A DNA stretch of 64,000 nt. Origin: a virus. Made by a program: the position numbers and the translations under genes. The notes under the pieces are model-generated. The model did no database searches. It had not been told where the DNA came from and was given only the letters and a program-made list of their open reading frames with translations. Location of the stretch: IMG/VR virus record IMGVR_UViG_3300028196_001473; one strand, 5' to 3'. Positions 10,501-26,131 of this stretch are shown in pieces; position 1 is the first letter of the stretch, and each line of letters begins with the position of its first letter.

Positions 10501-11431
10501 GGGTATAACTACGGCCACAGAAACAGTCACCGATAGTGGAAATGATAATTACTATGTTGATGGATTAAGTTTCGATACTAGTACTGGTGTTCTTACGGCG
10601 AGTGTGAATGGGGCAACTGATCAGACAGTCGATTTAGACGGTAGATATGCATATTCATCTCACGACCACAATAGAATTACCGAGAACTCATCAATTACGT
10701 TCGGTACGGGTCAATTCCAATGGATGGATCAGAGTGGTGCGGGAGGTACAGGTATGAATGGTGAGGCACCACAAAACCCAAATACTGATTGGCACCACCA
10801 AATAATAATGAACCACGCAAATAGTGCTGGTTACTATGTACAAATGGCGTTTGATTTCCATGATGACCAAGTATGGTTCCAAAGAATGGAAAATGGTTCA
10901 TTAGAGGGTTGGAGAGAATTTATACACTCAGGAAATATTGGATCCCAATCAGTGAGTTACGCATCCACAGCGGGATCAGCAGATATGATTGATGGTGTCG
11001 CATTTAGAAACACAAATTCAGGTGCAGGGATTGATGCGGACTCCTTAGATAGTGCGGGTATCACATACTACACAGGTGGTGTGACAAACTTCTCAGGTAA
11101 CGCAACTGACGGAGCACTCTACTCACAAATATATAGTTCAGCATGGCAACATCAAATTGCGGGTGACTATAGAAGTGGACGAATTGCGGTTAGAGGTAAA
11201 AATAGTGGTACTTGGCAATCTTGGAAAAAGATACCGGCGGTTAATGTTTCTACATTCAGTAATGTGGGTACCGTTACTTTTACCCATGGTTTAGGAACCG
11301 ACAACGTGATTGTACAGGTATATGATAGTAATGGTGATTTATTTTTCCCTTCGGCAATAAATTCTTTAAATGGGGTGGTTGTGGTTAAATTTGAAACAAG
11401 TAGATCAGGAAGAGTAGTCGTAACAGGATAA
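1514..11431 (+). CDS. Giant modular tail fibre / receptor-binding protein (3305 aa)
   Basis: Gly/Ser/Thr/Asn-rich; coiled-coil repeats RLDSLETKTGSL; cupredoxin-like module; recurrent TAYGWGDH and TTGATFNxGNG...DGR linkers; knob-like modules ending in WxxWxxxxHSG. Confidence 0.85.
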   Translation: MNIFDPHITGSLSVSASAEIQGDLTVQGTIYGTAQIDGSVDNAISASHAASYLLTSSFNDYKNTAATTGSNVFIGDQTISGSLLPQGTLTHDLGSDTKRWNDIYLAGSTIDLGGTKITKNSDGDVQLHDSGNTLKRLIASEIELGHGSNKKVLKVNNGRLKLMATNDSDEELAQLSGSFTGSFRGDGSGLINVPASGVTGLSLDRIASTTATASISSDSLITNVSIIPSITNTIDLGAPDKEWRDLYLSSGSLYINGQQVLSTTGTELRVTTDSGESIKILETGSDTITLQTVDGDITLSSSGTGNIELDAPIQITAGNKVISSDGNSIVFGNGLIVTGSIDLTGTVDGVDISLLKTDVDAILDSSDADKNSFAEIVGLINSVDTTNDEAFAAHYTASNNRFTSLETTSGSHDGRLDLLETFTGSVDGTMRSDFNTHTASNDSTNTTQNSRLSSLETKSGSLTTDIKSKLNTENVVSGSEFVLNSTSPITQYVDVTVTASGGVYYIDGVEQQIVSLAKGLVYRFDVSHSSNSGHPFRFSLTNNSQYTDGVTVNGTEGLSGAYVQIVVNQDTPQTLLYYCTNHNGMGNKVFVGGAGDTDSITEGTTNLYYTDDRVKTKLNTETVISSSIQVDITGTTNYNLVDGRLDSIESFTASIDDTYATDTDLTTLRGDLNTYTSSNDSTNITQNSRLGSLETTSGSHDGRLDSIESFTASIDDTYATDSDITNLRGDLNTYTSSNDSTNTSQNNRLGSLETKTGSLNTDISNLRGDLNTYTSSNETDKQNLSGRIDSLETKSGSLSGDISTLDGRVDSLEVVSGSQKTKLGEHKNRLDSLETKTGSLEGDISTLNGDISTLDSRVDSIETKTGSLSTDVSNLGNRVDALEEFTSSIDDTYATDTDVTTLRTDLNTYTSSNNTTNSNQDLRLVSLETESGSIRTTFNSYTSSNDSTNTTQNNRLNSIETTSGSHDGRLDSLETKTGSLNGDITGLDSRLDTIEGGLEFTGSNVTIKGDLLIKGTETRVDSTTVEIGDNIISLNGSGAQNAGIEVRDNTSPDLLSGSLIWDGQTNYWKGGQKGSEERLLDNTDLTTLDSRLDGIEAETGSYLTDYNNEYTTGATFNSGNGVITFKRNDGDTFTVDIDGRFLDTRAQVHSELYSTNGDANDYTEFGIYRNFASNGPISGHNTILHVSQTDGNYGFQLGGSTLVNGDGLYFRNFAGTNTITGSTWYHIATRDWVGDQNYLTDYNDEYTTGATFNSGNGVITFKRNDGDTFTVDIDGRYLTSYSETDTLDSVVARGNTTSRGITLGSGSPWAPLVINASAGESSANAGVAIALDGTDYSEYGYRFKANGSNYYQVLYDGSAINWKHYNSGYTTKMSLSNGGNLTATSFIKSGGTSSQFLKADGSVDSNTYLTQHPPIASPASSNNSGRTYIQDILLDGNGHVTGLTTATETVTDSGNDNYYVDGVEFNLSTGVFTASVNGSTNQTVDLDGRYVKLGGDTMTGTLTVPTVQMGNASFGRSGDQNHVHFVGTALIPNTSTTASNSNMGTSTYRWKGVYGGLGDFSGVVTASGGNSGNWNTAYGWGDHSTEGYITGYSEVDTLDSVTDRGATTSNIITVGGVNLNDGNSIIEEAAGNAFRFKTSTGYIDIGSKNSGWIHFEGNKPFYFGTSSTVFDGDVRPYTNNTRSLGSSSYRWSGIYANGGDSSQWNTAYGWGDHSTENYLKEYNDEYTTGATWNGGTGIVTFTRNDGDTYSVDISSALTEVTVTGGTYNDGNQTLTLTKSDGTTVEVTGFALDNTNNFTTGATFNTGNGIITGTRNGGDTWTVDIDGRYLPLDGGTISSSNTYSLKLENSSNGLGTGIEFSDNPGTGTQRAYITHYHGDGSSYGSGASIVLSTNQPTMTILADGKLMYKEGIYSKPATGTGAGTRKDTNWDTAYGWGDHSQVGYITGFTNTNEFTTGATFNTGNGIITFTRNNGGDTFNVDLDGRYALSSHNHDDRYFQDNKGSISLTGGNPFDDSKTETRVTGSGSYVINYTGASAHLFSSNVGGSASMFQIGAHYNGSDFYMRTRTDSSTWQTWKQLWHSGDFSSTNISQWNTAYGWGDHSVAGYTGDQDLSGYLLNTTDTFTGSLTVNGDIRGAGQHLILNAGESYAYATGQGNEYVYINAEQGLEVNSETGNWSGGWAARKTALLRGDLLRLDGEDLTKTNIQNFKTAYGWGDHSTEGYVKNDEYTTGATFNSGNGIITFTRNDGDTYTVDVDNRYLQLSGGSLSGNLNMTGTNPMIKFVPTGTNDGAGIRFNYTNNDGEMEFWTSDDYSEPFVWRAYDVGLDGTGNYQEWMKLYQKKLYIDGEELSKTNIQNFKTAYGWGDHNTAGYITGYTDTNEYTTGATFNGGSGTLEFTRNDGDTYSVSIASALIDVTVTGGTYNSGNQILTLTKSNGSTVDVSGFAVDTDVNWYTTSASFNTGNGIITGTHHGGTWTVAIDGRYGLKSLSENKTYTSGGNAVGSYLGGHYSAGGTEKPNSATFGSGKLKIAMLSNTNLGFGGSWNDVLWISAYNGGDVKGSHALVFDKYSTNVYVSDQSYDSASWGTGYQLWHTGHFQQSSINNWNTAYGWGDHSAAGYASGDFLLKSGGTMSGAINMNGSGINMVNGSISNVNHITIADPGPTEGIEWLGGNGFRIVESPNDLTTNSGGNLQFVKSSTRILTLGSNGQSEFTDKLTLTSSTSGSTIFDIQGTSGQLFSITDDLTGDLFAVSDSSGVPIFNVNASGAITIDPLGSLYVGNNKVINGSGNIEFDGPVTTSNQGRGIYWTGYDKEDTTDSSDTAHILHTSNSGGLSGSVIEIKSHNDATDGVNFVVNGNSAVRINGNIVVHAGNYTSYQQHPTITAATSSDNSGRTYIQDILLDGNGHVTGVTTATETVTDSGNDNDIDYISGATFDDATGVITGTGTGNAGFTVDIDGRYLTSESYTAHDNITAATSSNNSGRTYVQDILVDGNGHVTGITTATETVTDSGNDNYYVDGLSFDTSTGVLTASVNGATDQTVDLDGRYAYSSHDHNRITENSSITFGTGQFQWMDQSGAGGTGMNGEAPQNPNTDWHHQIIMNHANSAGYYVQMAFDFHDDQVWFQRMENGSLEGWREFIHSGNIGSQSVSYASTAGSADMIDGVAFRNTNSGAGIDADSLDSAGITYYTGGVTNFSGNATDGALYSQIYSSAWQHQIAGDYRSGRIAVRGKNSGTWQSWKKIPAVNVSTFSNVGTVTFTHGLGTDNVIVQVYDSNGDLFFPSAINSLNGVVVVKFETSRSGRVVVTG
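3437..4500 (+). repeat. Coiled-coil repeat region of tail fibre with DNA-level duplication
   Basis: Many RLDS(L/I)ET motifs; exact 38-nt repeat agaggtgatttaaatacttatacctcatccaacgattc at 3518 and 3695 (177 nt apart). Confidence 0.8.
5745..10560 (+). repeat. Three copies of a ~47-aa module SxNSGRTY(I/V)QDILxDGNGHVTGxTTATETVTDSGNDN
   Basis: Copies at about 5745-5885, 10140-10285 and 10410-10550 in the translation. Confidence 0.85.
6233..9355 (+). repeat. Seven TAYGWGDH linker repeats in tail fibre
   Basis: (WN/WD/FK)TAYGWGDH(S/N) at about 6233, 6622, 7299, 7787, 8136, 8582 and 9323. Confidence 0.85.
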
Positions 11432-11442
11432 AAAAGAGTTAA

Positions 11443-12582
11443 ATGATTAGAGAAAACGTAATAGTTAGTGGTTCACTTGACGTGAGTGGACAATTTATCA
11501 TACCAAGAGGTAGTAGAGGGGAAAGACCCACTTCACCTGAGACAGGTTCTATGTACTTAGAAGAATCTACAAGTGGTAGTTTCGTTGTTACATACACTGG
11601 TTCATCTAATTATGATGATGGTTGGGAACCCGTGGGTTCACAAGATACTGACAGAACAGGATTCAAATACAGACAAATAATAAACTATTCATATTTGGCA
11701 GGTGGATATAAGTCAGGTTCACCTTGGAAGAATGTACATAAAACAATTAACGCAACTGACCAAACATCTCACTTAGGTGAGTTATTAGATTACCCCGCAA
11801 ATTATACCTCAGGAGTATGTAGTAAGACTAAACTATTCTTATGGTCAACAAATACAGATGGTGGTCATAAAGGGGCTACCACAATACATTCAACTCACAC
11901 ATCTGGTATTGATATGGTGAATGAAACAACATACGCACACCAATCTAAGTGGGATTTATTAAATGCAAGGGATGATTGTGGAACTTTGTTTAAGGAAACC
12001 GAATTTGCATATGTTTTTGGTGGATCGGTAGCTACTGTAGAAAAATTTAATTTAACTAATGAGACAATGTATACCACTTATTATCCAGGTGGGTCACCTT
12101 ATGTTACAACAACATTATCCATTACGAGTACATTAGGTTCTTCAGGGTTTTCTGATGAAAACTATGGTTATGGGTATGGTTCTGAAAGTGGAAACAAATG
12201 TCACTTTGCTACTGATGTGTTCGAGACAAGGGCATCCTCATGGGCATCTAGTGGGCAACAGAAAGGGATAAGTTCTAAAGTTGGTAAAGGTTATTGTGGA
12301 AATGAAGGTACATATAATGGAGGTTACAATTTAAGAAGGTGGGACGTTTTCACTGAAACTAATATTGGTAATGTCCCTAAACCACATGCAAATTGTGGAG
12401 AAGAGAATTTCACATTAGGACAAGACCATCAATACATGTTAGCAACATATGATGGTACAGGTCAAACAAATACAAGTTGGAAATTCTCATATACGACAGA
12501 TACGGGTACGGTAAATCCTGCAGGGTTAGCACCAGGTGTTAACGCAGGTGCATCATCAGGACATTGTGGTTGGAGAAATTAA
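11443..12582 (+). CDS. Tail-associated protein, paralogue 1 (predicted beta-propeller-like)
   Basis: N-terminal VSGSL motif as in the fibre; shared blocks YSYLAGGYKSxSPWKNVHK, GISSKVGKGY, CGEENF, SSGHCGWR with the next two ORFs. Confidence 0.65.
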   Translation: MIRENVIVSGSLDVSGQFIIPRGSRGERPTSPETGSMYLEESTSGSFVVTYTGSSNYDDGWEPVGSQDTDRTGFKYRQIINYSYLAGGYKSGSPWKNVHKTINATDQTSHLGELLDYPANYTSGVCSKTKLFLWSTNTDGGHKGATTIHSTHTSGIDMVNETTYAHQSKWDLLNARDDCGTLFKETEFAYVFGGSVATVEKFNLTNETMYTTYYPGGSPYVTTTLSITSTLGSSGFSDENYGYGYGSESGNKCHFATDVFETRASSWASSGQQKGISSKVGKGYCGNEGTYNGGYNLRRWDVFTETNIGNVPKPHANCGEENFTLGQDHQYMLATYDGTGQTNTSWKFSYTTDTGTVNPAGLAPGVNAGASSGHCGWRN

Positions 12583-12583
12583 C

Positions 12584-12590
12584 TATTTAT
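12584..12590 (+). promoter_or_regulatory. Putative late promoter core TATTTAT
   Basis: In the 12-nt gap before ATG 12595; very close to the start codon, so uncertain. Confidence 0.3.
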
Positions 12591-12594
12591 AGAT

Positions 12595-13713
12595 ATGATA
12601 TTTGAAAATTTAGAAATTAGTGGATCATTAAGAGGACAAGGACCTACAAGACCTCCTTCAGGTTTGAAGGCGAGTAGACCATCTTCACCAGAAAACGGGT
12701 CCCTATATTTGGAAATGACAACCTCAGGTAGTTTTGATAATAGTTTCTTGATGGTTTATACAGGTAACGGAAACGATGGTGGATGGGAAAGAATTTCAAA
12801 TCAAAGTAATTTTGGTAAAACGAGTTTCAAGTACAATCAGATAATAAATTATTCATATCTAGCCGGTGGTTACAAATCAAGTTCACCTTGGAAGAACGTA
12901 CACAAAACGGTTAATTCAACAGATCAGACAACTCACTTAGGTGAGTTATTGGATTATCCTGCATCATATACCTCAGGAGCATGTAGTAGAACTATTTTCT
13001 ACGTATGGTCTGTTAATAGTGATGGTGCATGGAAGAGTGCGGGTAATGTACATGGTACAACCACATCAGCGGTAAATATGATAACTGACACCAACTATGC
13101 ACATACTGCGGCGATGGATACAACTATATCAAGAAGTGATTTAGGTACTATGCATAAAGAAACTGATATGGCATACCTTTTTAGTGGTGGTTCGGCAACC
13201 GTGGAGTTATTTAACTTAACCACGGAATCTTTACATACCGCATATACATTAACAACAATAAACGGTAGTGACGGTGCTTCCGCATTTTCAGATGAACTTC
13301 ATGGTTATGGGTGGACTTCAAGTGCTGGTGTTAAACTAAACTTCGCAACTGAAACATTTGCAACCTCGGATCGTTGGGGTAATCACTCACAACAGAAAGG
13401 GATTAGTTCTAAAGTTGGTAAAGGTTATGCTGGTAATGAAGGTTCTTATAATGGAGGTTACAACTTGAGAAGATGGAGTAATCAAACAGACACAAATATT
13501 GGTAACGTCGTGAAACCTGACGGAAATTGTGGTGAAGAAAACTTTACTATGGGTCAGGATTGGCAGTATATGTTAGGTAATTATAATGGTTTACAAAATA
13601 ATAATTCGTGGAAATTCACGTACGCAACAGACACAGGAACTACAAGTGTTACAGGTTTAAATCCCGCGGTAAACCCGGGGACTTCCTCTGGACATTGTGG
13701 TTGGAGAGAATAA
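12595..13713 (+). CDS. Tail-associated protein, paralogue 2
   Basis: Same conserved blocks; ends SSGHCGWRE. Confidence 0.65.
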   Translation: MIFENLEISGSLRGQGPTRPPSGLKASRPSSPENGSLYLEMTTSGSFDNSFLMVYTGNGNDGGWERISNQSNFGKTSFKYNQIINYSYLAGGYKSSSPWKNVHKTVNSTDQTTHLGELLDYPASYTSGACSRTIFYVWSVNSDGAWKSAGNVHGTTTSAVNMITDTNYAHTAAMDTTISRSDLGTMHKETDMAYLFSGGSATVELFNLTTESLHTAYTLTTINGSDGASAFSDELHGYGWTSSAGVKLNFATETFATSDRWGNHSQQKGISSKVGKGYAGNEGSYNGGYNLRRWSNQTDTNIGNVVKPDGNCGEENFTMGQDWQYMLGNYNGLQNNNSWKFTYATDTGTTSVTGLNPAVNPGTSSGHCGWRE

Positions 13714-13725
13714 AATAAAAAGAAT

Positions 13726-14841
13726 ATGATATACGAAAATATGTCCGTTAGTGGTTCACTTAAAGTGGACAGAGTCACTGCAAGACCACCAAAAGGTGTT
13801 AAGTCACAGAGACCGTCGAACCCATTATCCGGTTCTCTATTCTTAGAAGAATCATCCGAACACACAAATTACCTTATGGTTTATACAGGTGTTTCAAATA
13901 TAGAAAATGGTTGGGAACGAATATCGGCACAACAGAATGAAGGAACTAACTTTAAGTACAGACAAATAATTAATTATTCGTATATGGCTGGCGGATACAA
14001 ATCAAGTTCACCTTGGAAGAATGTACACAAGGCAACCAACGCAACCGATCAGACAACTCACATTGGTGAGTTATTAGATTACCCTGCAAACTATACTTCA
14101 GGTGCGTGTAGTAAAACTATATTTTATATGTGGTCCGTAAACACCGATAGTGCACACAAAGGACCAACAACCCTACATAGTAACACAACTTCGGCGGTTA
14201 ACATGATGACCGATACTAATTACGCACACCAATCTAACCACGACTTACAATATAGTAGGTCCGATTGTGGAACCATGTGGAAAGAACATGAGTTTGCTTG
14301 GATTTTTGCGGGTAACAGAACTGAGGTAGATAAATTTAATTTAAGTAATGAAACGACAATAACAAACTACGGGGTAACCTCGATAAGTAGTAGTGGTGGA
14401 GCGAGTTCTTTTTGTAATGAAACCCATGGATATGGATGGAGTACAAGTAGTATAAAAATGGAATTCTCTACGGAGACTATATCAAGTTCATCAAGTTCAT
14501 GGTCAGCACACGGACAACAAAAAGGTATTGCGTCTAAAGTTGGTAAGGGTTATGCCGGTAATGAGGGATCTTACCAAGGTGGTTACAATTTGAGAAGATG
14601 GGATACATCTACAGATACCAATATTGGTAATATTCCTAAGTTAAGATCTAATTCCGGTGAAGAAAATTTCGCAATGGGACAGGATTGGCAATACATGTTA
14701 GGTTGTTATGGTAGTAGTCTTCAAAATAACGATAGTTGGAAGATGTATTATCAAACAGACACAGGTGTTTTAAATCCGGCGGGTCTCCCACCAGCAGTGA
14801 ATGCGGGTACATCTTCAGGTCATTGTGGTTGGAGAGAATAA
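13726..14841 (+). CDS. Tail-associated protein, paralogue 3
   Basis: Same conserved blocks; ends SSGHCGWRE. Confidence 0.65.
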   Translation: MIYENMSVSGSLKVDRVTARPPKGVKSQRPSNPLSGSLFLEESSEHTNYLMVYTGVSNIENGWERISAQQNEGTNFKYRQIINYSYMAGGYKSSSPWKNVHKATNATDQTTHIGELLDYPANYTSGACSKTIFYMWSVNTDSAHKGPTTLHSNTTSAVNMMTDTNYAHQSNHDLQYSRSDCGTMWKEHEFAWIFAGNRTEVDKFNLSNETTITNYGVTSISSSGGASSFCNETHGYGWSTSSIKMEFSTETISSSSSSWSAHGQQKGIASKVGKGYAGNEGSYQGGYNLRRWDTSTDTNIGNIPKLRSNSGEENFAMGQDWQYMLGCYGSSLQNNDSWKMYYQTDTGVLNPAGLPPAVNAGTSSGHCGWRE

Positions 14842-14901
14842 TACCATTTTACACTTTATTTAATACTTTTTTATACTTATATTATAGTAAAATTTTATTA
14901 T

Positions 14902-15648
14902 ATGCAAGACTTTAAATACGAAAGAGATGGTGCAAACTCTAAACTCATAGAAATAGCGGAACAGGTATCATTTGCACTACCGAGATATAAGGCAGAGACT
15001 TTTGTTGGGGGAGCACAAATTACCCCATACGCAAAATTGAAACAGTGGTTACTTGAACTCAGAGGTCGTGAAGATGCGGTCGAACATTTAGAGTATACTG
15101 TACAAAAACAAGACTTAGAAATACAAATACAAGAGGAGAGTAAAGAATTTCTTACCGACCCTAAAAGAAAACAATTAGTTGACCTTAATATTGCGGATAT
15201 GAAGATTGACCTTAGAAAGTTTAAAAGAAACTTGAAGGACGCTTATATTGAGAGACAAGGGTTTATTGATCTAATAAAAGATTTCTTAAACACTGATGAT
15301 GCCAAATTACCTGACGGTTCTAATTTAATAGATGTCATAGGTAATAAAGATTTAGAAGATAAATTTGAACATGAGTATTGGACAGTCAGAATGGCAAAAC
15401 AAGCCATGTTAGATATGATATCGTATGGTAGAGTGGGTACAGGTAACTTAGATTCTATTTTAATGATGTCGGCCGAACAACAGAAACAAGTTTTATCACT
15501 TGCTTCCTCTTACACAGTATTTATAGATAAGAACATTAATCAACTAATGTCTAACGCGACCACAAATAGTTTCTCAATTGAAGAATCGTTGAGAAATCAA
15601 CTTAAGTTGGGTAAGGCAGATAAACCTGATACTGAAAAACTTTTATAA
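14902..15648 (+). CDS. Hypothetical coiled-coil protein in tail operon
   Basis: Central helical heptad-like region; TAATG coupling to next gene. Confidence 0.6.
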   Translation: MQDFKYERDGANSKLIEIAEQVSFALPRYKAETFVGGAQITPYAKLKQWLLELRGREDAVEHLEYTVQKQDLEIQIQEESKEFLTDPKRKQLVDLNIADMKIDLRKFKRNLKDAYIERQGFIDLIKDFLNTDDAKLPDGSNLIDVIGNKDLEDKFEHEYWTVRMAKQAMLDMISYGRVGTGNLDSILMMSAEQQKQVLSLASSYTVFIDKNINQLMSNATTNSFSIEESLRNQLKLGKADKPDTEKLL

Positions 15649-16388
15649 TGAGACATATTATTTTTAAAATAACTGGTGAAATACCTGGATACATCAGAGT
15701 TGTTGGATCCTACATGAATTATTACTACGGTCGTATTGAAGATATATATGATGACATGAGATTAGATTTGGATAAGTTTAATGCGTCTGTCATAACTGAG
15801 GACGTTGGAAAAGGTTTTATTTTTGCGGACATATATAAAAGTTATGTAAGTATAAGAACAAATTCATCAATGATGGATGAGGTACCTGTTTTAGCTGAGT
15901 CTTCAGAAACTGAAGAAGAAAAAGTTAAATACACACTTACAGATGAGGACAAACAATTGGGTGTTGATTTTAATAAGGCGGTTCTTCTAAAGGTTATTGC
16001 GGATAGATTCTTTACGAGGTATAAAGATCTTATGGTTGATACGTCTGATTTAGAGAAAGATACGTGGGAGGAACAGAAGAGAGAGGCGTTCGCATATCAA
16101 GAGAACAGTAACTACCCAACACCTGTGATAGATATACTTTCAAGTGGTAGGGGTATTGACAAACAAGTATTGGTGGATAAGATTATATCTAATGTTACAA
16201 CATATAACACAAAATTAGCAACACTACTTCTTGAACAACAACTTTTAGAAACAAAAGTTAAAAATTGTAACACTATAGCGGATTGTCACAGAGTAAGACA
16301 TGAGAAATTTGGTGTAGGTATGAGTAGACAACAAAAGATTGATGAGGAAATTGAGACAACCCCACTGACACTGAAGATAGATTTCTAA
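15648..16388 (+). CDS. Tail fibre assembly-like protein (DUF4376/Tfa-like C-terminal domain)
   Basis: Motif EKDTWEEQKREAFAY...PTPVIDILSSGRGIDKQVLVDKI matches the E..TW..Q..EA...TP....A..RG.....L..K pattern of fibre-associated chaperones. Confidence 0.6.
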   Translation: MRHIIFKITGEIPGYIRVVGSYMNYYYGRIEDIYDDMRLDLDKFNASVITEDVGKGFIFADIYKSYVSIRTNSSMMDEVPVLAESSETEEEKVKYTLTDEDKQLGVDFNKAVLLKVIADRFFTRYKDLMVDTSDLEKDTWEEQKREAFAYQENSNYPTPVIDILSSGRGIDKQVLVDKIISNVTTYNTKLATLLLEQQLLETKVKNCNTIADCHRVRHEKFGVGMSRQQKIDEEIETTPLTLKIDF

Positions 16389-16398
16389 AAATAACTAA

Positions 16399-17397
16399 AT
16401 GAATTTAGCAATAAATGGTACATGTGCTAAAGGTTGTTCGTTCTGTTTTACAAAAGAAGATGCAAGACTAAAACACACTCTTGGTGAAATGTCAATAGAA
16501 AAGGTTGGTGAACTACTTGACCACTTTGACGTAAAAGGTTCTAGAGAAGAGGTTACCATTTTAGGTGGTGAACCGACACAACATTCAAACTTTATTGGAC
16601 TAATGGATTATATAATCTCTAGAGGTTATAAAGTTAATCTTGTAAGTAACTTATTATTTGGTAAGAGAACATTAGATTACATAACCACTAATATAAGACA
16701 TATTCAATGGGTCCTACCTAATGGTGCGGAGTTAGATGAAAAGAATAGATTAAATCTATTTAAAAAGAATTATCTATCACTCTACACGGCGTATGCCAAT
16801 ACGTGGGGTTTTGAAGAAAATCCAAGATTATTCATTGCACTAACACTATCGTCAGATTGGAAAGAAAGAAAAATGTATGATTACATAAAGTGGTTGTACC
16901 ATGCGTTAGATGGTAAACTAAATGCAATAAGGTTAGGTTTAGATCTAACAGGTACCTATCTAATTAATAATAAGGAGATGGGTAAGGAGGTTACCAAGAT
17001 ACTTAAATTTGGAATGTACAACAATATAAGGGTTACATCCGATTGTCAAGTACCACCATGTTTATGGGAGGGTAAAACAAAAGAATCAATTATACAAAAC
17101 TCATTCGACTTCGCCACTTTTAAAGTAAAAGGGTACGATAAGATATGTGGGTTTATGCCATTAGATATTTTTCCTGATGGTTCATCTATTCATTGTTATC
17201 CTTTACAAGATAAAGTTAAGATAGATAATGTATTGAAAATTTCGGGAGAAAATAGTATATTAACTCTAAGAGATGAGTTCGACGACCTTTATAGAGATAA
17301 TCATAAAAATTATAAAATACCACAAGACTGTTTAGATTGTGTTTTTTACAAGACAGAATGTAATGGAATATGTGGGGGATGTTTAGAGAATGAGTAA
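16399..17397 (+). CDS. Radical SAM / SPASM-domain protein
   Basis: CAKGCSFC (CxxxCxxC), ILGGEPT, C-terminal CGF...DGSSIHC and CLDCxxxxxxCxxxCGGC auxiliary cluster motif. Confidence 0.9.
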   Translation: MNLAINGTCAKGCSFCFTKEDARLKHTLGEMSIEKVGELLDHFDVKGSREEVTILGGEPTQHSNFIGLMDYIISRGYKVNLVSNLLFGKRTLDYITTNIRHIQWVLPNGAELDEKNRLNLFKKNYLSLYTAYANTWGFEENPRLFIALTLSSDWKERKMYDYIKWLYHALDGKLNAIRLGLDLTGTYLINNKEMGKEVTKILKFGMYNNIRVTSDCQVPPCLWEGKTKESIIQNSFDFATFKVKGYDKICGFMPLDIFPDGSSIHCYPLQDKVKIDNVLKISGENSILTLRDEFDDLYRDNHKNYKIPQDCLDCVFYKTECNGICGGCLENE

Positions 17398-18430
17398 GAT
17401 TTTTTCAATACCGTTAAATCCAATGTTAAGTGAGCAAGCGTTCACACATGTATTCTACCCTTTTTTAAAGGAACATAAGGATTGGATTTATGATATATAT
17501 TTCACATGTAGGATACCACCATTTACTCAAGATGCGATGGGATCAATCATAGATGATAATGACAGAAACTCTGTTTTTGAAAATGCAATGATGATACAAG
17601 AATCGTTAGGAATAAAAGTAAGTGCAACTTTTAATAACTTTAACGTATCACCAAAGTATGAAAACTATAAACTCTTTATTGATAATTTAAAACCCCTTTA
17701 TGAGAAAGGGTTAAGGTCTATGACAATTCCTCATGGTCATTGGGTTGCTATGGGTCTAAAGGATCATTTTCCTGAGATGCATATTAAAAATACCATACTT
17801 AGGAAGGTTAATACTGCACAAGATTTTTGGTATTCCGCTGAACAAGGTTTTGATTATATTAATGTGGACAGAATACTAATGAGGGATGTGGAAGAATTGA
17901 AAAATATTAGAAGGGCACAACTGATGTTTCAACAGAAACACGGTAGGTATATTGAAATTGCATTACTAACTAATGAAGGTTGTTTAGGTAGGTGTCCCGT
18001 TATGGATGAACACTACTCATACAATAACTTAAGAAAACCAAACGAATTACCATACTTTCACCATGAAATATCTAAAGTAACTTGTGAACACAAATGGGAA
18101 GACGAGGTTGATGCATTCTTTTTTAAAACCGCAACAATTCCTCCATTCAAAGAGGAGTTTAATGAATACCTGAACCATGTTGACGTTTTTAAAATGCATG
18201 GTAGAGATAGTTTTGATAGACTTAACGAAACTATGGAAATTATTGAGTCATATTCCAAAGGTAAAGAGGTATTGTCGTCATCCTCTAAAACATATTTAGA
18301 TGGTGTACCATACGAAGAGTTGAGAGGGTGGAGAAAGAAAATTAAGAAATGTAAATTTCAGTGTTGGGATTGTAACTACTGTGATATAGTGTCGGAACAT
18401 AAAAAAAGAAAACTTAATGGATCTAATTAA
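17390..18430 (+). CDS. U32 peptidase-family-like Fe-S protein
   Basis: NEGCLGRC, TCEH, FKMHGR and C-terminal CKFQCWDCNYC; TIM-barrel-like pattern; overlaps upstream gene. Confidence 0.6.
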   Translation: MSKIFSIPLNPMLSEQAFTHVFYPFLKEHKDWIYDIYFTCRIPPFTQDAMGSIIDDNDRNSVFENAMMIQESLGIKVSATFNNFNVSPKYENYKLFIDNLKPLYEKGLRSMTIPHGHWVAMGLKDHFPEMHIKNTILRKVNTAQDFWYSAEQGFDYINVDRILMRDVEELKNIRRAQLMFQQKHGRYIEIALLTNEGCLGRCPVMDEHYSYNNLRKPNELPYFHHEISKVTCEHKWEDEVDAFFFKTATIPPFKEEFNEYLNHVDVFKMHGRDSFDRLNETMEIIESYSKGKEVLSSSSKTYLDGVPYEELRGWRKKIKKCKFQCWDCNYCDIVSEHKKRKLNGSN

Positions 18431-19082
18431 ACACATAGACGACTCAATTAGGTGGGGTGAAAGAGAAGTATCTAAACTTAACCAAGATGTATTGAATATT
18501 CACGGAATTACAAGTAACAAAGTAAGATCGTTACTCAACAACATATGTTCAATAGAGGGGACGTATTTAGAGGTTGGTGTTTTTAGAGGTGCAACGTTCT
18601 GTTCCGCCATTTATAATAATGATAAACTACACGCTATAGGTATTGATAACTTCGCATCACCTAACTTAATGCCGATGGGTGTTAGTCAAAAATTGGCATC
18701 GTACTTAAAACAAGGGTTAGATGTAACACCACAGGAAAACTTCATAGATAATGTTAATCGGTTTGGGGATCCCGATAGGTTGGATATATACAAAACAGAT
18801 TATACAACCTTTGATTATTCCCAACTACCTAAATTAGATATTGTTTTCTATGATGGGGACACTAAGTTTCACGATCAGTATGTTACACTTAAAAAATTAA
18901 TCCCTCAATTCTCAGACAAGACAATACTGATAATGGACGATTGGAATTGGGATAGTGGAGCACTTTATAGAATCATAGACGAGGAAAAATTGTTTGTATC
19001 ACACCAAAAAGAAATCTTTACTAAGGGTGAGGATATGAAAGACTTTTGGAATGGAATTGGGGTATTTCTTTTAGAAAAGTAG
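18417..19082 (+). CDS. Class I SAM-dependent methyltransferase (Methyltransf_24-like)
   Basis: YLEVGVFRGAT motif I, IGIDNF, VFYDGD, ILIMDD. Confidence 0.85.
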   Translation: MDLIKHIDDSIRWGEREVSKLNQDVLNIHGITSNKVRSLLNNICSIEGTYLEVGVFRGATFCSAIYNNDKLHAIGIDNFASPNLMPMGVSQKLASYLKQGLDVTPQENFIDNVNRFGDPDRLDIYKTDYTTFDYSQLPKLDIVFYDGDTKFHDQYVTLKKLIPQFSDKTILIMDDWNWDSGALYRIIDEEKLFVSHQKEIFTKGEDMKDFWNGIGVFLLEK

Positions 19083-19131
19083 TTGACTTTCATATAAAAT
19101 TTATTTAAATTATCGTTAAATACTTTAAAAA

Positions 19132-19989
19132 ATGAACAGAATATTAATATTATTATTAATCACATTATCTACCAATCAGGTCTTCGCACAATACACTTCG
19201 AGATCTCTAAATAACGGTCAAAAAGACAGTACAGAAGTGAAGTCACTTGATGAAGTGGTGGTCACAGCTAAAAAATATTCCCAATTTGAGTTGGTTGGTG
19301 AGAATAAACAACCCGCGTGGACTCTTGTTAGAAAATTTCCAGCAACAAGAACTTACATAATGGTACCTAAAGGTACTGTAATGTATGAAAAATGGTTTGA
19401 CATGAGAACACCAAGAGGTGGTGATCCTACAGAGGTTAGGATGAGAGATGAGTTTGCATTTGGATTAGCCGAAAGATTAGAATTAGATTTATATATTCAT
19501 ACCGTCTATAAATCAGGTGGTTATGAATCCTCGTTTGGGTTCAGAGGGTTCTCATGGGAAATAAGATACGCACTGGCGGAGTGGGGTAAGATATGGGGTA
19601 ACCCAACACTATATTTCGAACATAAATTATTAGATGGAAAGTACCAAGGTATTGAACCTAAAATACTTTTGGGTGATAGGATTGGAAAGAAGGGTATATG
19701 GGGTGTAAATCTTATTTATGAGGCATATACGGCACCTAATAGAGAGGATCAAAAAAGACAGTACGCATATACCGCATCTTACGGTAGTATAATTAATGAC
19801 GATCTAACCATAGGAATTTCAAATATGTTTAGACATAATGATGTAGATGGTTCAAATGAATGGTATGTTGGACCCGCTGTACAATATAGGTTTAATGGAA
19901 ACTCCTACCTTAACTTTGAGATACTACCAGGATTAAATCAAGACGCTAAAAAATTTAGAAATACCCTTATATTTGGATGGAGGTTTTAA
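19132..19989 (+). CDS. Exported outer-membrane beta-barrel-like protein
   Basis: Signal peptide MNRILILLLITLSTNQVFA; LDEVVVTA motif; alternating aromatic beta-strands; C-terminal FGWRF. Confidence 0.6.
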   Translation: MNRILILLLITLSTNQVFAQYTSRSLNNGQKDSTEVKSLDEVVVTAKKYSQFELVGENKQPAWTLVRKFPATRTYIMVPKGTVMYEKWFDMRTPRGGDPTEVRMRDEFAFGLAERLELDLYIHTVYKSGGYESSFGFRGFSWEIRYALAEWGKIWGNPTLYFEHKLLDGKYQGIEPKILLGDRIGKKGIWGVNLIYEAYTAPNREDQKRQYAYTASYGSIINDDLTIGISNMFRHNDVDGSNEWYVGPAVQYRFNGNSYLNFEILPGLNQDAKKFRNTLIFGWRF

Positions 19990-20990
19990 CGAATAACCAA
20001 CACTTCCTAATTTACCTCTCATTTATAATGGTAATAACGGGAATCTTAAAAGAAAAGGGTTACCTATTAGATGTGTTTAGTTTAATACTAAAAACAGTTA
20101 AATCCAAGAAGGTCGTCTTATTTTTAATATCTTTATTTGGTGGGATATTACCCATACCTGGTAGGGTTGCGGTTTCAGCGGGTATACTCGACACCGTTGC
20201 ACCCAAAGATAAACAAGGGAGAGAAAATTACGGAATAATTGACTACCTATCAACACACCATTATTACATATGGTCACCATTAGAAAAAACAGTCATAATA
20301 CCTATGGCCATTTTAGGTGTTACGTATGGTGAATTAATGGGTATGGTGTATCCATTACTTATAATATCTATACTTGTAATAGGTGTATACATTTACAAAT
20401 TCCAAGACGGAAACATTGAAATACCAAAACATCATCAGGTCAATTATAAGAACATATATTCAATATTCCTACCCTTCATACTAACATTAGTATTGGCGGG
20501 TCTAACGGATCGTTATTTACCTTTATTTTGTGGATTCACCCTTTACTTAGTAAGTTACTCCAACTCGTGGGGTAAATTATTAAAACACGTTAGATGGAGA
20601 TTAGTTTTAAGTGTGGGTATTGTGATTATTGTTTCTAATCTTATTTCATTATATGGTAATGAAATAAAGACTAATTTAGGTGGGGTTACATCCGACCATA
20701 ATATACTCTTAGTTGGTACGTTATGTTTTATAGGTTCTTTTCTATTAGGGTCATCAGGGAAGTACGCAGGGATAGTTTCATTAGTGACCTCCATTATGGG
20801 AATACAATATTTTCTATTCTTATTTACCATGTGCTATTCAGGTTACCTTTTATCTCCAACACATAAATGTATATATATTGGACAACAGTATTTTGGTACT
20901 CCAATTAAAAAATATTTATTATCCATTTCGGTTTGGGTAATAATTATGATTGTCTATAGTTCTTTAGACTTGACTTTTACAATTAAATAA
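19977..20990 (+). CDS. Polytopic inner-membrane protein, DUF401/ion-transporter-superfamily-like
   Basis: About ten hydrophobic segments; GILPIPG, STHHYYIWSP and SPTHKC motifs. Confidence 0.55.
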   Translation: MEVLTNNQHFLIYLSFIMVITGILKEKGYLLDVFSLILKTVKSKKVVLFLISLFGGILPIPGRVAVSAGILDTVAPKDKQGRENYGIIDYLSTHHYYIWSPLEKTVIIPMAILGVTYGELMGMVYPLLIISILVIGVYIYKFQDGNIEIPKHHQVNYKNIYSIFLPFILTLVLAGLTDRYLPLFCGFTLYLVSYSNSWGKLLKHVRWRLVLSVGIVIIVSNLISLYGNEIKTNLGGVTSDHNILLVGTLCFIGSFLLGSSGKYAGIVSLVTSIMGIQYFLFLFTMCYSGYLLSPTHKCIYIGQQYFGTPIKKYLLSISVWVIIMIVYSSLDLTFTIK

Positions 20991-21014
20991 ACTATATTTC
21001 TAAAAAATAACATT

Positions 21015-21458
21015 ATGTCAACAAAGTTAACAATCGATCAAATCCTACAATTGGACGCAGAAATAAATGGGTATACTAATCCTCAAAACGGTGAAGTAAT
21101 CTATGAAGGTTTTGCAGCACAACCACTATCAATCTTATTGAAGTATGAACTTAGAGAACTCTCTGAGAAATTAAAAGATGAAAGAGGTAAAGTTGATGAA
21201 CTAAGAAACGAACTAATTGAAAAGTTTGGTGAGAAAACAGAAGAAGGTGGTGTACAAATAACACCAACAATCGAAAAAAAGAAAGGGAAGAAAACTGAAA
21301 CGGTTAAAAATCCTAAGTATGTAGAATTCTTAAATGAATATAATAAGTTACTTACTAAAGAGATAGAATTGGATCACCCAGTAATCACTAAGGACGACCT
21401 TAAAGATGCGGGTAAAACAAAAGACCAATACAATATCTTATTTAATTTAGTGGGGTAG
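21015..21458 (+). CDS. Hypothetical helical phage protein (DUF1617-like)
   Basis: DELRNELIEKFGEK...EYNKLLTKEIEL pattern; last gene of the plus-strand run. Confidence 0.45.
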   Translation: MSTKLTIDQILQLDAEINGYTNPQNGEVIYEGFAAQPLSILLKYELRELSEKLKDERGKVDELRNELIEKFGEKTEEGGVQITPTIEKKKGKKTETVKNPKYVEFLNEYNKLLTKEIELDHPVITKDDLKDAGKTKDQYNILFNLVG

Positions 21459-21459
21459 T

Positions 21460-22560
21460 TTAAACTTTCTTTTTAATTATGATTTTCAAATTTCCGATTT
21501 GATATTCTCCTACATCGTAGTGTGGAATTGATAATCGGATTTTGTTTATTACATGAAGATCTTCCTCGTTCATTATTTCGGTCTCAATGATCATTACATC
21601 CACAACATCACATAATAAAAATTTAGATCTTAAATCATAGTTAGTGTTAGGTTGTTCATTTGCAATATATTCGGTGGGTGCAGTACCACCTAAATATAGT
21701 TTATCAAAATAAGGTTCCAACCTATATAAGTGTTTGTCACTCCTTAATTCAATACCCATATTAAACGTCGGATAATTAAAAATTTCATCTTCCCAATAAT
21801 ACAGTTCGTTGAATGTCGGTATTGTGATACCCCATTTACGTATAAAGTTACGTATGTTTCTGTGTTCACTTAATTTACTTTCTTCGGACCGCAACACTCT
21901 ACTTGTTTTAGAAACAAAATGATATACTACAGCACACTCTGTTGTTTTAAGTGAGTAACCTTTTAATTTGGATCTAATAATGAAATCATCATCTTCACAG
22001 AAAAAAGGATCAAAAGTAAAACCATCAAATAAACCAACATCAATAAACGTTTTCTTATAACCCGACATAAAAAATGTACCCCCATTAACTAAGTCCTTTC
22101 TTTCCTTAACTTTGTCAACGTATTGGTCAAATAAGTGATAATTAAAATCGTTGAATCCTCTACCCAATTCTAATATAACTTTACCAGGTCTTTTATGTCC
22201 TTTAAAAATTGGGGGTTCAATAGTGGTATACGTGATAAGAGACTTTTCATCAATCAGTTCCGATAGATTCTCTAAAAAATTCTTACCGATCACCATATCA
22301 TTATGAATCAAAACCAACTTATCGGTATCAACTAACTTGATGGCCGAATTATAATTGTCTGAGAAAGTTAATTGATCGTCATCATGTATATAGGAAAGGT
22401 TATCGTCATCCAAAGACTGTAACCAATCTAACGTACCATCTGTAGATCCACCACTACTAATAACCATAGGAGCGTCAGGGTATATATCTCTTACCCTTTG
22501 ATATGTATTCTTGGTATAGTCTAAGTTATTAAAAACAGCAAGTACTAAAGAGATATCCAT
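21460..22560 (-). CDS. Glycosyltransferase family 2
   Basis: ISLVLAVFN start, LIHNDMV (DxD-like), FFCEDDDFIIR, VYHFVSKT. Confidence 0.85.
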   Translation of the reverse strand: MDISLVLAVFNNLDYTKNTYQRVRDIYPDAPMVISSGGSTDGTLDWLQSLDDDNLSYIHDDDQLTFSDNYNSAIKLVDTDKLVLIHNDMVIGKNFLENLSELIDEKSLITYTTIEPPIFKGHKRPGKVILELGRGFNDFNYHLFDQYVDKVKERKDLVNGGTFFMSGYKKTFIDVGLFDGFTFDPFFCEDDDFIIRSKLKGYSLKTTECAVVYHFVSKTSRVLRSEESKLSEHRNIRNFIRKWGITIPTFNELYYWEDEIFNYPTFNMGIELRSDKHLYRLEPYFDKLYLGGTAPTEYIANEQPNTNYDLRSKFLLCDVVDVMIIETEIMNEEDLHVINKIRLSIPHYDVGEYQIGNLKIIIKKKV

Positions 22561-23192
22561 TATTTATTGGTGTTATCGAATATTGAAATGAATAGTCGTT
22601 CGAAGATCCACGGACCTAATACTTTATTGATACATAATTCATTAGCCCTTTTATAAAACTCCACACTTCTCATTCTAATAGTCTCTCTACTAACCGCAAA
22701 TATTGCACCGGCGGTAAATGGATATAGTTCAAGAGGTGGATCTTCAAATAGTTCTACCCAAACACCATTTATATCCATACCTCCGTGATGGGGAGTCCCG
22801 TCTGGTCTCGAATGTAAAACTCTTTTAAAGGGACCATCACTAAAAAATAGTAATTGATTAGGTTTTTCAAAAACTATTGATTTGGTGGTATTTGGAAATT
22901 CTTTTAAGATCTCTTTGTAATTTCTAACGTGATCAAATGGGTGCCCTTGAGTAAAGAATACCCACTCACCTAAATTATCATAATTTTTTATTATGTGGGT
23001 TAGATACGTGTTACCTTCTCGACCAACGTTAGGTAAATTAATTGAACCTTCGATAGGTTCCCCTTTATTATATAAGAAAATTCTATAATCAGAAAACTCC
23101 GATAACCAAGTTATGTCTTCTCTATATCTACTTACAATTAAATCACCTTTGTAGTTCATCATAATAGTTATTTTGTTTCTCTTGTCGATCAA
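22560..23192 (-). CDS. DUF3431-like protein
   Basis: IVSRYREDITWL, LPNVGREGNTYLTHII, FFTQGHPFDH, PWIFERL. Confidence 0.7.
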   Translation of the reverse strand: MIDKRNKITIMMNYKGDLIVSRYREDITWLSEFSDYRIFLYNKGEPIEGSINLPNVGREGNTYLTHIIKNYDNLGEWVFFTQGHPFDHVRNYKEILKEFPNTTKSIVFEKPNQLLFFSDGPFKRVLHSRPDGTPHHGGMDINGVWVELFEDPPLELYPFTAGAIFAVSRETIRMRSVEFYKRANELCINKVLGPWIFERLFISIFDNTNK

Positions 23193-23772
23193 TATTCTTA
23201 TGATGTATTAAAGAAAATGATTCATCTTCAGGTAAGTTAGTGTACGTATTATAATTTACTAACCTCTCATGTACTTTACCGTACCATCTTATTCTACTCT
23301 CTCTTTTCCATATTCTTGCTTGAGAGTCAGGAAAATTAACCCACCCTTTTGAGTTGACATTCCATTTCCATTTCTTAATGTGTTCGTCAGTTAAACCTTC
23401 GACAGTATTCACTCTTGAAACTAAAAATACTTCGTTCTTAGGGTTCGCATCAATTATTGTTGGTAGGTAATTAATTAAATTTAAATGAGGTATTTCGTCC
23501 GCATCAATTTGAAAAATGTAATCACCCTCACAATAGTCTAATAATTTATTCTTCCACTCACCAAAATGACCATCAAAATAACCCCTCCACATTTGGAAGT
23601 TGGGTAATTTATTGTGTTTAACCAACCACTCGGCGATTTCATCAGAACCATTTTTTTGGTCATATAAAACCACTATGTTGTCACTTGGTCTTTTATTCCT
23701 AAGTAGAAATCCGACTAAACGTTTTATTTCCTCAAATTCATTACAGACAGTAATTGCGTAAGTAATTTTCAT
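23143..23772 (-). CDS. Glycosyltransferase family 2
   Basis: ITYAITVCNE, YIFQIDADE (DxD), WYGKVHERL. Confidence 0.85.
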   Translation of the reverse strand: MKITYAITVCNEFEEIKRLVGFLLRNKRPSDNIVVLYDQKNGSDEIAEWLVKHNKLPNFQMWRGYFDGHFGEWKNKLLDYCEGDYIFQIDADEIPHLNLINYLPTIIDANPKNEVFLVSRVNTVEGLTDEHIKKWKWNVNSKGWVNFPDSQARIWKRESRIRWYGKVHERLVNYNTYTNLPEDESFSLIHHKNIDRQEKQNNYYDELQR

Positions 23773-24621: not shown

Positions 24622-24622
24622 A

Positions 24623-25888: not shown

Positions 25889-25904
25889 ATAATTTTAAAT
25901 AAAC

Positions 25905-26117
25905 CTAATCTATTGGAAAATACTTATCCAATGTTGATAATTTATCGTCAGCATCTACCAGCATTGATAATGCCTCTTCTGCGTTTTTATAGAAGTCACC
26001 TGTTGAGTGGTCTCCGATACCCGACCCTTTAGTTCCTAAAAGATCTAAAGTTAAGAGTGCCTTTGATTTCTCCGCCAACGCACCCGTCCTTAACATTTCT
26101 ATTAATTTTTCATTCAT
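25905..26117 (-). CDS. Hypothetical protein
   Basis: 70-aa ORF in the same minus-strand run. Confidence 0.55.
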   Translation of the reverse strand: MNEKLIEMLRTGALAEKSKALLTLDLLGTKGSGIGDHSTGDFYKNAEEALSMLVDADDKLSTLDKYFPID

Positions 26118-26131
26118 ATTATAGTTTTTAA

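Follow-up and report, generated by a model that had tools for sequence, protein, structure and literature searches.

A divergent U32-fold protein and an O-methyltransferase in a conserved fibre-linked gene block of marine T4-like and jumbo myoviruses

The viral DNA analysed here (IMG/VR record IMGVR_UViG_3300028196_001473; 64,000 nucleotides (nt), referred to as the window) comes from a phage genome and has a low GC content of about 33%. Five closely packed genes at positions 14902-19082, all on the + strand, follow a giant tail-fibre gene and three Kelch-propeller paralogues. They encode two small proteins of 248 and 246 amino acids (g248 and g246), a radical S-adenosylmethionine (SAM) enzyme, a U32-like Cys-rich protein and a methyltransferase. 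The core that recurs in relatives comprises Kelch, g248, g246, a DUF401 membrane protein and the U32-like enzyme, the last with or without the methyltransferase. The radical SAM gene stands outside this core as an addition specific to particular lineages. The region would be the form taken, in one lineage, by a fibre-tip accessory cassette that is conserved and expressed late in marine T4-like and jumbo myoviruses. In such a cassette, one to three Kelch-propeller proteins would stand after, or be fused to the end of, a long fibre, with g248 and g246 as partners. Its enzymes would be a divergent U32 iron-sulfur (Fe-S) enzyme and usually a TrmR/COMT-type O-methyltransferase, fused or translationally coupled to it, and DUF401 would usually belong to the set. 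An initial annotation, made from the letters alone, had proposed a maturation pathway for tail structures. Its placement of the enzymes inside a tail-fibre block stands, and the order of that block is conserved far beyond this phage. The radical SAM gene lies outside the conserved core, and the GHCGWR ending of the Kelch paralogues is a poor candidate for a modification site.

Gene order was compared across 80 IMG/VR loci, which form 21 clusters at 85% identity of the U32-like protein; counts refer to the clusters with enough flanking sequence. g248 lies just upstream of the U32-like gene in 16 of 17 clusters, a Kelch gene lies upstream in 10 of 11, and DUF401 comes after it in 9 of 12. Across cyanophages, Ralstonia jumbo phages and prophage-like bacterial contigs, the order Kelch, g248/g246, U32 holds at 42-50% protein identity. 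It is also kept in cyanophages S-ShM2, S-CAM4, P-HM2 and P-SSM4 and in Ralstonia phage RP31, where the diverged Kelch-like open reading frame (ORF) 139 precedes the module. Metagenome contigs whose radical SAM proteins are 44% and 57% identical to that of the window carry, in the same order, a giant S74 fibre, three paralogues, the two small genes, the radical SAM gene and a fused U32-methyltransferase gene (U32-MT). The gene-order conservation that the initial annotation named as a check is found for Kelch, g248, g246, U32 and DUF401. It does not extend to the radical SAM gene, which is present in 4 of the 17 clusters with enough upstream flank and was not found in the isolate collection, where neither megablast nor tblastn against 50,697 phage records gave a match. 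In the same records, the U32-like gene matches 126 entries (123 cyanophage and 3 Ralstonia RP12-like). g248 also matches 126, with an identical breakdown by organism name, and the Kelch gene matches 123 by tblastn, equal to the cyanophage part of that breakdown.

Two bacterial contigs from metagenome-assembled genomes (MAGs), one of 6.4 Mb, carry a Kelch-ended fibre-like protein, g248, g246, the U32-like gene and DUF401 (loci L094 676-5445 and L098 756-5327). The L094 module is followed by genes for tail collar fibre and sheath proteins. These Pseudomonadales and Leptospirales loci look like prophages or tailocin-like elements.

In cyanomyoviruses, the corresponding genes were listed by Sullivan et al. 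2010 as T4-GC351-354 for P-SSM4, P-HM2, Syn19, Syn33 and S-ShM2 and left hypothetical. These homologues (P-SSM4 032-035, P-HM2 098-101) are 24-45% identical to the window proteins and lie beside the giant fibre gene. The Kelch gene comes first, the two small genes are reversed relative to the window, and U32-MT comes last. They are annotated as hypothetical or 'sericin 1 precursor-like', and the U32 and methyltransferase parts are fused. The cyanomyoviruses differ from the window in having a single Kelch gene that lacks the GWR ending and in DUF401 being absent or distant, and a radical SAM gene was not found in those with T4-GC351-354.

The block reads as follows in the window.

1514-11431, + strand: giant tail-fibre protein, 3305 amino acids, first gene of the block; rich in T, G, S, N and D, with a single Cys
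11443-12582, + strand: Kelch-propeller paralogue 1, 379 amino acids, phrog_1417; presumed fibre-tip protein, homologous to the modelled paralogue 2
12595-13713, + strand: Kelch-propeller paralogue 2, 372 amino acids; AlphaFold2 (AF2) model
13726-14841, + strand: Kelch-propeller paralogue 3, 371 amino acids; paralogue of the modelled paralogue 2
14902-15648, + strand: g248, 248 amino acids, phrog_1409, T4-GC353 counterpart; sequence reads as helical
15648-16388, + strand: g246, 246 amino acids, phrog_1604, T4-GC352 counterpart; sequence reads as helical
16399-17397, + strand: radical SAM enzyme, 332 amino acids; PF04055 match, nine-Cys C-terminal domain
17390-18430, + strand: U32-fold TIM-barrel protein, 346 amino acids, seven invariant Cys residues; presumed Fe-S enzyme
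18417-19082, + strand: Methyltransf_24 methyltransferase, 221 amino acids, of the cation-dependent O-methyltransferase type; PF13578 match
19132-19989, + strand: small protein, 285 amino acids, putative outer-membrane barrel; weak Phenol_MetA_deg similarity
19977-20990, + strand: DUF401/TIGR00529 polytopic membrane protein, 337 amino acids; family match
21015-21458, + strand: g147, 147 amino acids, phrog_1401; last + strand gene of the block

The gene positions and two overlaps given earlier are confirmed. The radical SAM and U32-like genes overlap by 8 nt (17390-17397), and the U32-like and methyltransferase genes by 14 nt (18417-18430). g248 and g246 share 1 nt in a TAATG junction at 15648. 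The spacer reported between g246 and the radical SAM gene is present and measures 10 nt (16389-16398) rather than 11. As the initial annotation had stated, no terminator-like hairpin lies on the + strand within 14902-19082. Over 11000-22000, the count of terminator-like sites is not above that of shuffled sequence. A T4-type late-promoter box, TATAAATA, is not found on the + strand anywhere before 28005. The same genes also occur on many marine metagenome contigs and on G001, a fragment of 26 kb from the same virus. Among the downstream members, the 285-residue protein is a variable part of the block with a hydrophobic N terminus like a signal peptide, and its weak Phenol_MetA_deg similarity suggests an outer-membrane barrel. 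g147 is kept after DUF401 throughout the window's clade. A convergent cassette on the - strand with glycosyltransferase and nucleotide-sugar epimerase genes (21460-27514) abuts the block, and the genes beyond it at 28128-28814 and 30137-31183 encode a DNA methyltransferase and a thymidylate synthase, respectively.

The persistence of this arrangement bears on whether the genes share a function at all. The fibre zone of T4-like phages is plastic, and it could gather unrelated auxiliary genes that travel by linkage alone. The content of the slot next to the U32-like gene differs greatly between lineages, as such a view would have it. In S-ShM2, 12 unrelated genes including petE and gnd are inserted between g248 and U32-MT, and cyanophage 2-oxoglutarate (2OG) oxygenases and prnA have been classed as sporadic host-like genes (PMC3037559). 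However, the gene order survives in cyanophage, Ralstonia and prophage-like groups at the identities given above, S-ShM2 retains U32-MT after its insertion, the overlapping codons amount to translational coupling in the window, and DUF401 tracks the U32-like gene even when unlinked. We regard the absence of a common function as very unlikely.

The Cys-rich protein itself has no Pfam or NCBIfam match. The U32 profile PF01136 matches neither this protein nor any of 35 homologues (E up to 10), nor does it match in G001, and alignment of the family profile with E. coli UbiU and UbiV by hhalign gives a probability of about 1% or less. The fold tells a different story from the profile. The AF2 model is a TIM barrel with a predicted local distance difference test score (pLDDT) of 87. 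Its top PDB chain is the U32 peptidase 5d88 (MK0906; Z 15.7, root-mean-square deviation (rmsd) 3.3 Å, 223 of 247 residues), followed by MTHFR as the next-best fold (Z 13.3). In the Swiss-Prot section of the AlphaFold database (AFDB), the top match is the U32 protein MJ1657 (E 2.8e-12, template-modelling (TM) scores 0.66/0.69), then TrhP, PrtC and TrhP1/2; U32 proteins make up 9 of the top 15 models. Named AFDB clusters around the model are mostly 'Peptidase U32', and the surrounding ESM-atlas clusters bear U32 names as well; PF01136 is found in 20% of the members of one ESM-atlas viral cluster whose fold is nearly identical. The label 'U32-like' of the initial annotation thus holds for the fold and fails for the sequence profile. 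On the basis of the model, the protein belongs to a mostly viral and divergent branch within the U32 superfamily, a branch that comprises 533 clusters at 50% identity among 1.84 billion proteins.

Seven Cys residues are invariant in this branch: C198-x3-C202, C232 and C321-x3-C325-x2-C328-x2-C331. Their arrangement differs from the canonical four-Cys [4Fe-4S] motif of U32 proteins, which has a PROSITE-type C-x6-C core, and the U32 C-terminal domain is missing. The protein, the conserved enzyme of the cassette, is presumed to bind an Fe-S cluster. Two side observations concern radical SAM proteins. The invariant C-x3-C-x2-C-x2-C at residues 321-331 has the spacing of a radical SAM cluster motif but lies at the C terminus, and one ESM-atlas fold neighbour (TM 0.74 by query) is a cluster of a bacterial 622-residue 'radical SAM domain protein'.

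U32 proteins reportedly occur almost exclusively in bacteria and archaea, and most subfamilies are uncharacterized (PMC10990095). TrhP, RlhA and UbiU/UbiV are Fe-S proteins needed for O2-independent hydroxylation of pyrimidine C5 or the benzoquinol ring (PMC10990095, PMC5727448). For UbiU/UbiV, prephenate has been identified as the oxygen donor, although an in vitro demonstration of direct activity is lacking (PMC10990095). By analogy with these proteins, and with the TrhP/TrmR pair, the U32-like enzyme may hydroxylate an aromatic or heteroaromatic carbon without O2.

The companion methyltransferase matches Methyltransf_24 (PF13578) at 27.6 bits against a cut-off of 26.3, as do 20 of 20 homologues, so that the earlier assignment to class I Methyltransf_24 is sound. 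The sole PDB match of the profile built from these 20 homologues is B. subtilis YrrM/TrmR (5zw3, E 1.2e-4). Invariant residues are E52-x-G54-xxx-G58, D77, D146, D174, D175 and N177. In an alignment of only 25 bits, D146 and D174/D175/N177 line up with the FID and DN segments of YrrM 5zw3; the aligned Asp/Asp/Asn positions are presumably the metal ligands of YrrM. In most relatives, the U32 and methyltransferase parts form a single protein of 540-600 amino acids, and phrog_1458 covers both genes of the window. The split into two genes is kept throughout the window's clade, which argues against a sequencing error.

The fusion of a U32-like to a TrmR-like domain is most simply read as hydroxylation of an aromatic carbon followed by O-methylation, the methyltransferase acting on the new hydroxyl group. 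The closest parallel is tRNA U34, where TrhP (YegQ; TrhP1/TrhP2 = YrrN/YrrO) carries out 5-hydroxylation and TrmR (YrrM) the subsequent O-methylation; TrmR methylates the TrhP product. Like that pair, the viral module places a U32-fold enzyme side by side with, or fused to, a class I methyltransferase of the cation-dependent O-methyltransferase type. Unlike TrhP, the window protein lacks a Pfam U32 match and the U32 C-terminal domain and has a different Cys pattern. The cassette also differs from TrhP/TrmR in being viral, late-expressed and placed between fibre-tip genes and a DUF401 membrane protein.

This parallel raises the possibility that the module acts on a nucleic-acid base, converting a 5-hydroxypyrimidine in tRNA, rRNA or phage DNA to its 5-methoxy form, as TrhP/TrmR do at Bacillus tRNA U34, and that its position beside the fibre is historical. 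TrhP, TrhP1/2 and RlhA-type proteins are indeed among the best fold matches, YrrM/TrmR is the only significant PDB match of the methyltransferase profile, and a clade of stand-alone U32-like genes (described below) sits among genes for DnaB, a nuclease, a ligase and nucleotide metabolism. A DNA methyltransferase and a thymidylate synthase are encoded a few kb away in the window. These points lose weight against the strict linkage to Kelch and g248, which a base substrate leaves unexplained, the missing canonical Cys motif and C-terminal domain, and the weak TrmR match (25 bits) within a broad COMT-like class. Timing also speaks against it, as the P-HM2 homologues are late, whereas nucleotide and replication genes are middle. 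We consider a base substrate unlikely, if less so than the absence of any common function.

The timing comes from the published P-HM2 expression classes (PMC5082946 supplement). These assign the fibre, GC514 and Kelch genes to Late (cluster E), PHM2_099-101, the homologues of g246, g248 and U32-MT, to Late (cluster D), and mazG, g41 and denV to Mid. For the window, four marine RNA libraries from four studies contain contig pieces 99-100% identical to the Kelch, g248, g246, U32-like and g147 genes. Two pieces bridge the junction between g246 and the radical SAM gene, and g147 alone is found in all four libraries. Since these are contigs only, they do not prove transcription.

A second parallel is found in ubiquinone synthesis. 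UbiU/UbiV(/UbiT) have the U32 fold and a presumed [4Fe-4S] cluster in common with the viral enzyme, their hydroxylations alternate with O-methylation, and both systems include a dedicated accessory protein. In contrast to the Ubi system, the block holds no isoprenoid-quinone genes, and the partners are Kelch, g248 and g246 rather than an SCP2 protein.

The DUF401 protein, which closes the cassette in most non-cyanophage relatives, bears on a related proposal. All 12 phage records with DUF401 also carry the U32-like gene (Synechococcus phages S-H25, S-CAM4, ACG-2014j and metaG-MbCM1, and Ralstonia phages RP12/RP31); in S-CAM4 the two lie 57 kb apart. On bacterial contigs, DUF401 stands beside U32-like genes (L094, L096, L098) or radical SAM-like genes (L099-L101), two of the latter confirmed as rSAM-SPASM by Pfam. 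The scan of prokaryote genomes gave 8 close loci only, so that the link between DUF401 and Fe-S enzymes rests on few cases. DUF401 resembles carriers of the ion-transporter superfamily (CitMHS), and its invariant His/Cys motifs THHYY.WSPLEK and SPTHKC suggest binding of a metal or substrate.

These features are consistent with a route in which the U32-like enzyme and the methyltransferase tailor an aromatic compound (quinone-like, indole-like, or a ligand or cofactor of Kelch), DUF401 and, in this phage, the putative barrel carry the substrate or product, or else a metal that the Fe-S enzymes require, and the fibre genes share only their timing. The confinement of DUF401 to U32-bearing phage records even at a distance of 57 kb, its bacterial neighbours, its likeness to CitMHS-type carriers with invariant His/Cys motifs, and the occurrence of the same pair of reactions in ubiquinone synthesis, UbiU/UbiV hydroxylation followed by O-methylation (PMC10990095), all favor it, and the set of halogenase, 2OG oxygenases, methyltransferase and radical SAM enzyme seen across lineages resembles a natural-product cluster. 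Yet the block contains no scaffold-forming enzyme (prenyltransferase, non-ribosomal peptide synthetase (NRPS), polyketide synthase (PKS) or precursor peptide), the cassette stays with Kelch, g248 and g246 in four very different phage groups, and cyanophages keep U32-MT where DUF401 is not nearby or absent. Such a small-molecule, cofactor or metal role seems to us rather doubtful, and less so than action on a base.

The fibre-tip protein that we favor as the target would come from the set next to the U32-like gene. The 3305-residue fibre matches only the DUF7310 coiled coil in Pfam; its counterparts are a 3698-residue S74-bearing protein (L006), a 'tail fiber protein' (P-HM2) and a 'fiber' (P-SSM4). 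The Kelch paralogues have no Pfam Kelch match. The AF2 model of paralogue 2 (pLDDT 85) is a six-bladed Kelch propeller that superposes on the Kelch domains of Keap1 and KLHL proteins (E about 1e-14, TM by target 0.82, rmsd about 3 Å). Among its viral matches are the 'sericin 1-like' protein of cyanophages and a protein of Ralstonia phage RP12. Fibre-like proteins of 1523-1589 amino acids in L094 and L098 have the Kelch domain as their C-terminal end. Kelch-repeat virion proteins of the jumbo phages PhiPA3, CBB and BcepSaruman, which are likewise large myoviruses, have the six-bladed fold in common with the window paralogues, and some are annotated as structural; the likeness is at fold level only. 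We know of no U32 or methyltransferase genes linked to these proteins.

The initial annotation had also named the GHCGWR paralogues as possible substrates. In the model of paralogue 2, the C-terminal CGWRE is the strand 367-371, the final strand of the propeller. This segment forms part of the propeller in the model and occurs independently of the enzymes, which makes it a poor candidate for a dedicated modification site, and we reject the SSGHCGW(R/K)x tail as a specific target signal for the radical SAM enzyme or halogenase. Upstream of the module in RP31, the 108-residue ORF144 (L088 7142-7465) ends in GSGGGFHWR, which is reminiscent of SSGHCGWR. The former name collagenase for U32 enzymes, and the oxygenases resembling prolyl 4-hydroxylase (P4H) in relatives, prompted us to consider collagen-type hydroxylation. 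It is rejected for this phage, as the fibre has no G-X-Y runs and only 1.2% Pro; collagen-like runs are confined to RP31 and L065/L068.

g248 accompanies the U32-like gene more faithfully than any other gene and has ten invariant residues, mostly polar. The label 'fibre-assembly-like' given earlier to 14902-15648 is unsupported; the gene belongs to phrog_1409, and searches of PDB and Pfam return no relative. More broadly, nothing usable came from comparing the g248, g246 and Kelch sequences with PDB, Pfam, NCBIfam and the ESM atlas. g248 and g246 have no relatives detectable outside the module, and in some relatives g246 is swapped for an unrelated gene of about 190 amino acids.

In the window's clade, a radical SAM enzyme accompanies this core. 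The assignment is firm: PF04055 scores 40.3 bits against a cut-off of 29.5, all 34 of 34 homologues match, and the CX3CX2C cluster motif (C9/C13/C16) is invariant in the 34. Nine conserved Cys residues lie in the C-terminal half, C250-x15-C266 (GxxxxC) and C311-x2-C314-x6-C321-x3-C325-x2-C328 with SPASM-like spacing, and C216 and C221. The spacing is near the seven-Cys SPASM pattern CX9-15GX4C...CX2CX5CX3C...C, yet one residue longer. None of the 34 homologues matches the SPASM profile PF13186 (E up to 1), and hhalign with a genuine rSAM-SPASM protein (L100) aligns residues 1-174 only. Profile matches to the SkfB, SuiB and PqqE cores are weak and confined to the first ~170 residues. Of the earlier name 'radical SAM/SPASM', only the first half is borne out by Pfam, and 'SPASM' denotes a resemblance in Cys spacing, not membership, since no homologue matches the profile and the alignments stop at about residue 170.

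The enzyme has in common with the maturases anSME, PqqE, MftC, SuiB, SkfB and QhpD an N-terminal CX3CX2C core and a SPASM-like Cys-rich C terminus, and as in those systems its gene adjoins candidate protein substrates. Unlike the maturases, it has no Pfam SPASM domain, RRE domain or short precursor peptide, and it is equally close to viperin-like and lipid-modifying enzymes. With its cluster motif already at residue 9, the enzyme lacks an N-terminal RRE or other peptide-recognition domain. On the U32 tree, radical SAM-bearing loci are patchy (the window's clade, L004 and L006). Among side observations on this family, L004 has a second, B12-binding radical SAM gene (1-298) upstream of its S74 fibre gene. 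The most distant homologue (L103, 29% identical) lies among five radical SAM genes and a carbamoyltransferase gene, and a 34% identical homologue (L102) lies between the terminase gene and a Gly-rich structural gene on a small phage contig.

The radical SAM gene of the window occupies a slot that holds 2OG-Fe(II) oxygenases in relatives. Where the radical SAM gene is missing, one or two of these oxygenases lie between g248 and U32-MT, and downstream of U32-MT come one or two Trp halogenases and more 2OG oxygenases, then DUF401. The slot would thus take oxidative tailoring enzymes that depend on the lineage, and in the window's clade the radical SAM enzyme with its putative auxiliary clusters would add a radical-mediated step.

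As the best reading of the cassette, we propose aromatic hydroxylation, O-methylation and a radical step on a fibre-tip protein, tentatively and with somewhat less than even confidence. The most likely target would be one of the fibre-tip proteins, which would receive the modification in late morphogenesis. We place such a protein first among the targets, as the leading though not yet probable candidate, then a small molecule, cofactor or metal as a doubtful second, an RNA or DNA base as an unlikely third, and no common function last, as improbable. The ranking follows from the late timing, the four-fold independent retention next to Kelch, g248 and g246, and the protein-type enzymes of the slot. 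A more specific version seems considerably less certain than the general one: an aromatic side chain in the Kelch tips or their partners would be hydroxylated, independently of O2, by the virus-specific U32 enzyme and then methylated by the fused TrmR-like domain, and lineage-specific radical SAM, 2OG and halogenase enzymes would add crosslinks, hydroxyls or halogens.

Several observations weigh against a fibre-tip protein as the target. We know of no characterized U32 enzyme with a protein substrate. The SSGHCGW(R/K)x ending occurs both with and without the radical SAM gene or halogenase, and it is replaced in cyanophages that retain U32-MT. Pfam and NCBIfam give no RRE match, and no short precursor peptide was seen; all neighbours are at least 147 amino acids long, and ORFs below 60 amino acids were not systematically searched. 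A step on a small molecule or a metal would suit the transporter-like polytopic partner better than a protein substrate would, and DUF401 beside Fe-S enzymes hints at a transported substrate or metal. Co-occurrence overstates functional linkage, as neighbours are inherited and lost together. The cyanophages with virion proteomes, S-SM1, S-PM2 and Syn9, are not among the genomes listing T4-GC351-354, so these proteomes are of no help as evidence.

The most direct counterexample is a clade of U32-like genes of about 370 amino acids (about 50% identical, with all seven Cys) that stand alone among replication genes on other large phage contigs (L062 = G002, L092, L093). Their neighbours encode DnaB, a PD-(D/E)XK nuclease, DNA ligase, adenylosuccinate synthetase and an HD-domain protein; Kelch, g248 and methyltransferase genes are missing from these loci, and a 224-kb record of the clade (estimated 85% complete) has no Kelch or g248 gene. 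The enzyme can therefore work without fibre-tip partners. On a midpoint-rooted U32 tree the clade is well supported and nested between module-bearing lineages, so that the stand-alone state looks derived. Homologues unlinked to tail genes, named in the initial annotation as evidence against its proposal, thus exist in part of the family, and the tree suggests that they lost the linkage secondarily.

The novelty lies in the viral U32 branch and in its being fused to an O-methyltransferase, in the fixed partnership with Kelch, g248, g246 and DUF401, and in the lineage-specific radical SAM enzyme; the superfamilies themselves are known. Our literature search found no paper in which U32, radical SAM or SPASM enzymes are connected with cyanophages or with the tail fibres of phages. 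The viral U32 branch stands out in being fused to an O-methyltransferase and locked in a tail-fibre module, and T4-GC351-354 have been unannotated in model cyanophages since 2010. If a fibre-tip protein is the target, the cassette would tailor a receptor-binding protein and add a new layer to phage-host recognition in the ocean; a protein would then be known as a U32 substrate for the first time, and tail fibres would have their first dedicated pathway of covalent maturation. With a base or metabolite as the target, it would be a new phage modification pathway. The tie to Fe-S enzymes gives a first functional handle on the DUF401 family. The question is testable in cultured systems (P-HM2/MED4, P-SSM4/NATL2A, Syn19 and Ralstonia RP12/RP31).

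If the fibre-tip proposal is correct, part of the long-unexplained cyanophage 2OG oxygenase and prnA genes could be accounted for, and the oxygenase- and halogenase-rich loci may give these genes a context. Up to eight 2OG-Fe(II) oxygenase genes surround U32-MT in L066 (8767-15639), L083, L076, L063, L071, L075, L077, L082 and L085. Two of the L066 genes (8767-9354 and 9375-9992) match both Pfam 2OG-FeII_Oxy_3 and phrog_274/phrog_2297, which are named 'DNA endonuclease V' and 'DNA endonuclease'. These names may be misnomers, perhaps along with 'denV' for the gene after U32-MT in P-SSM4.

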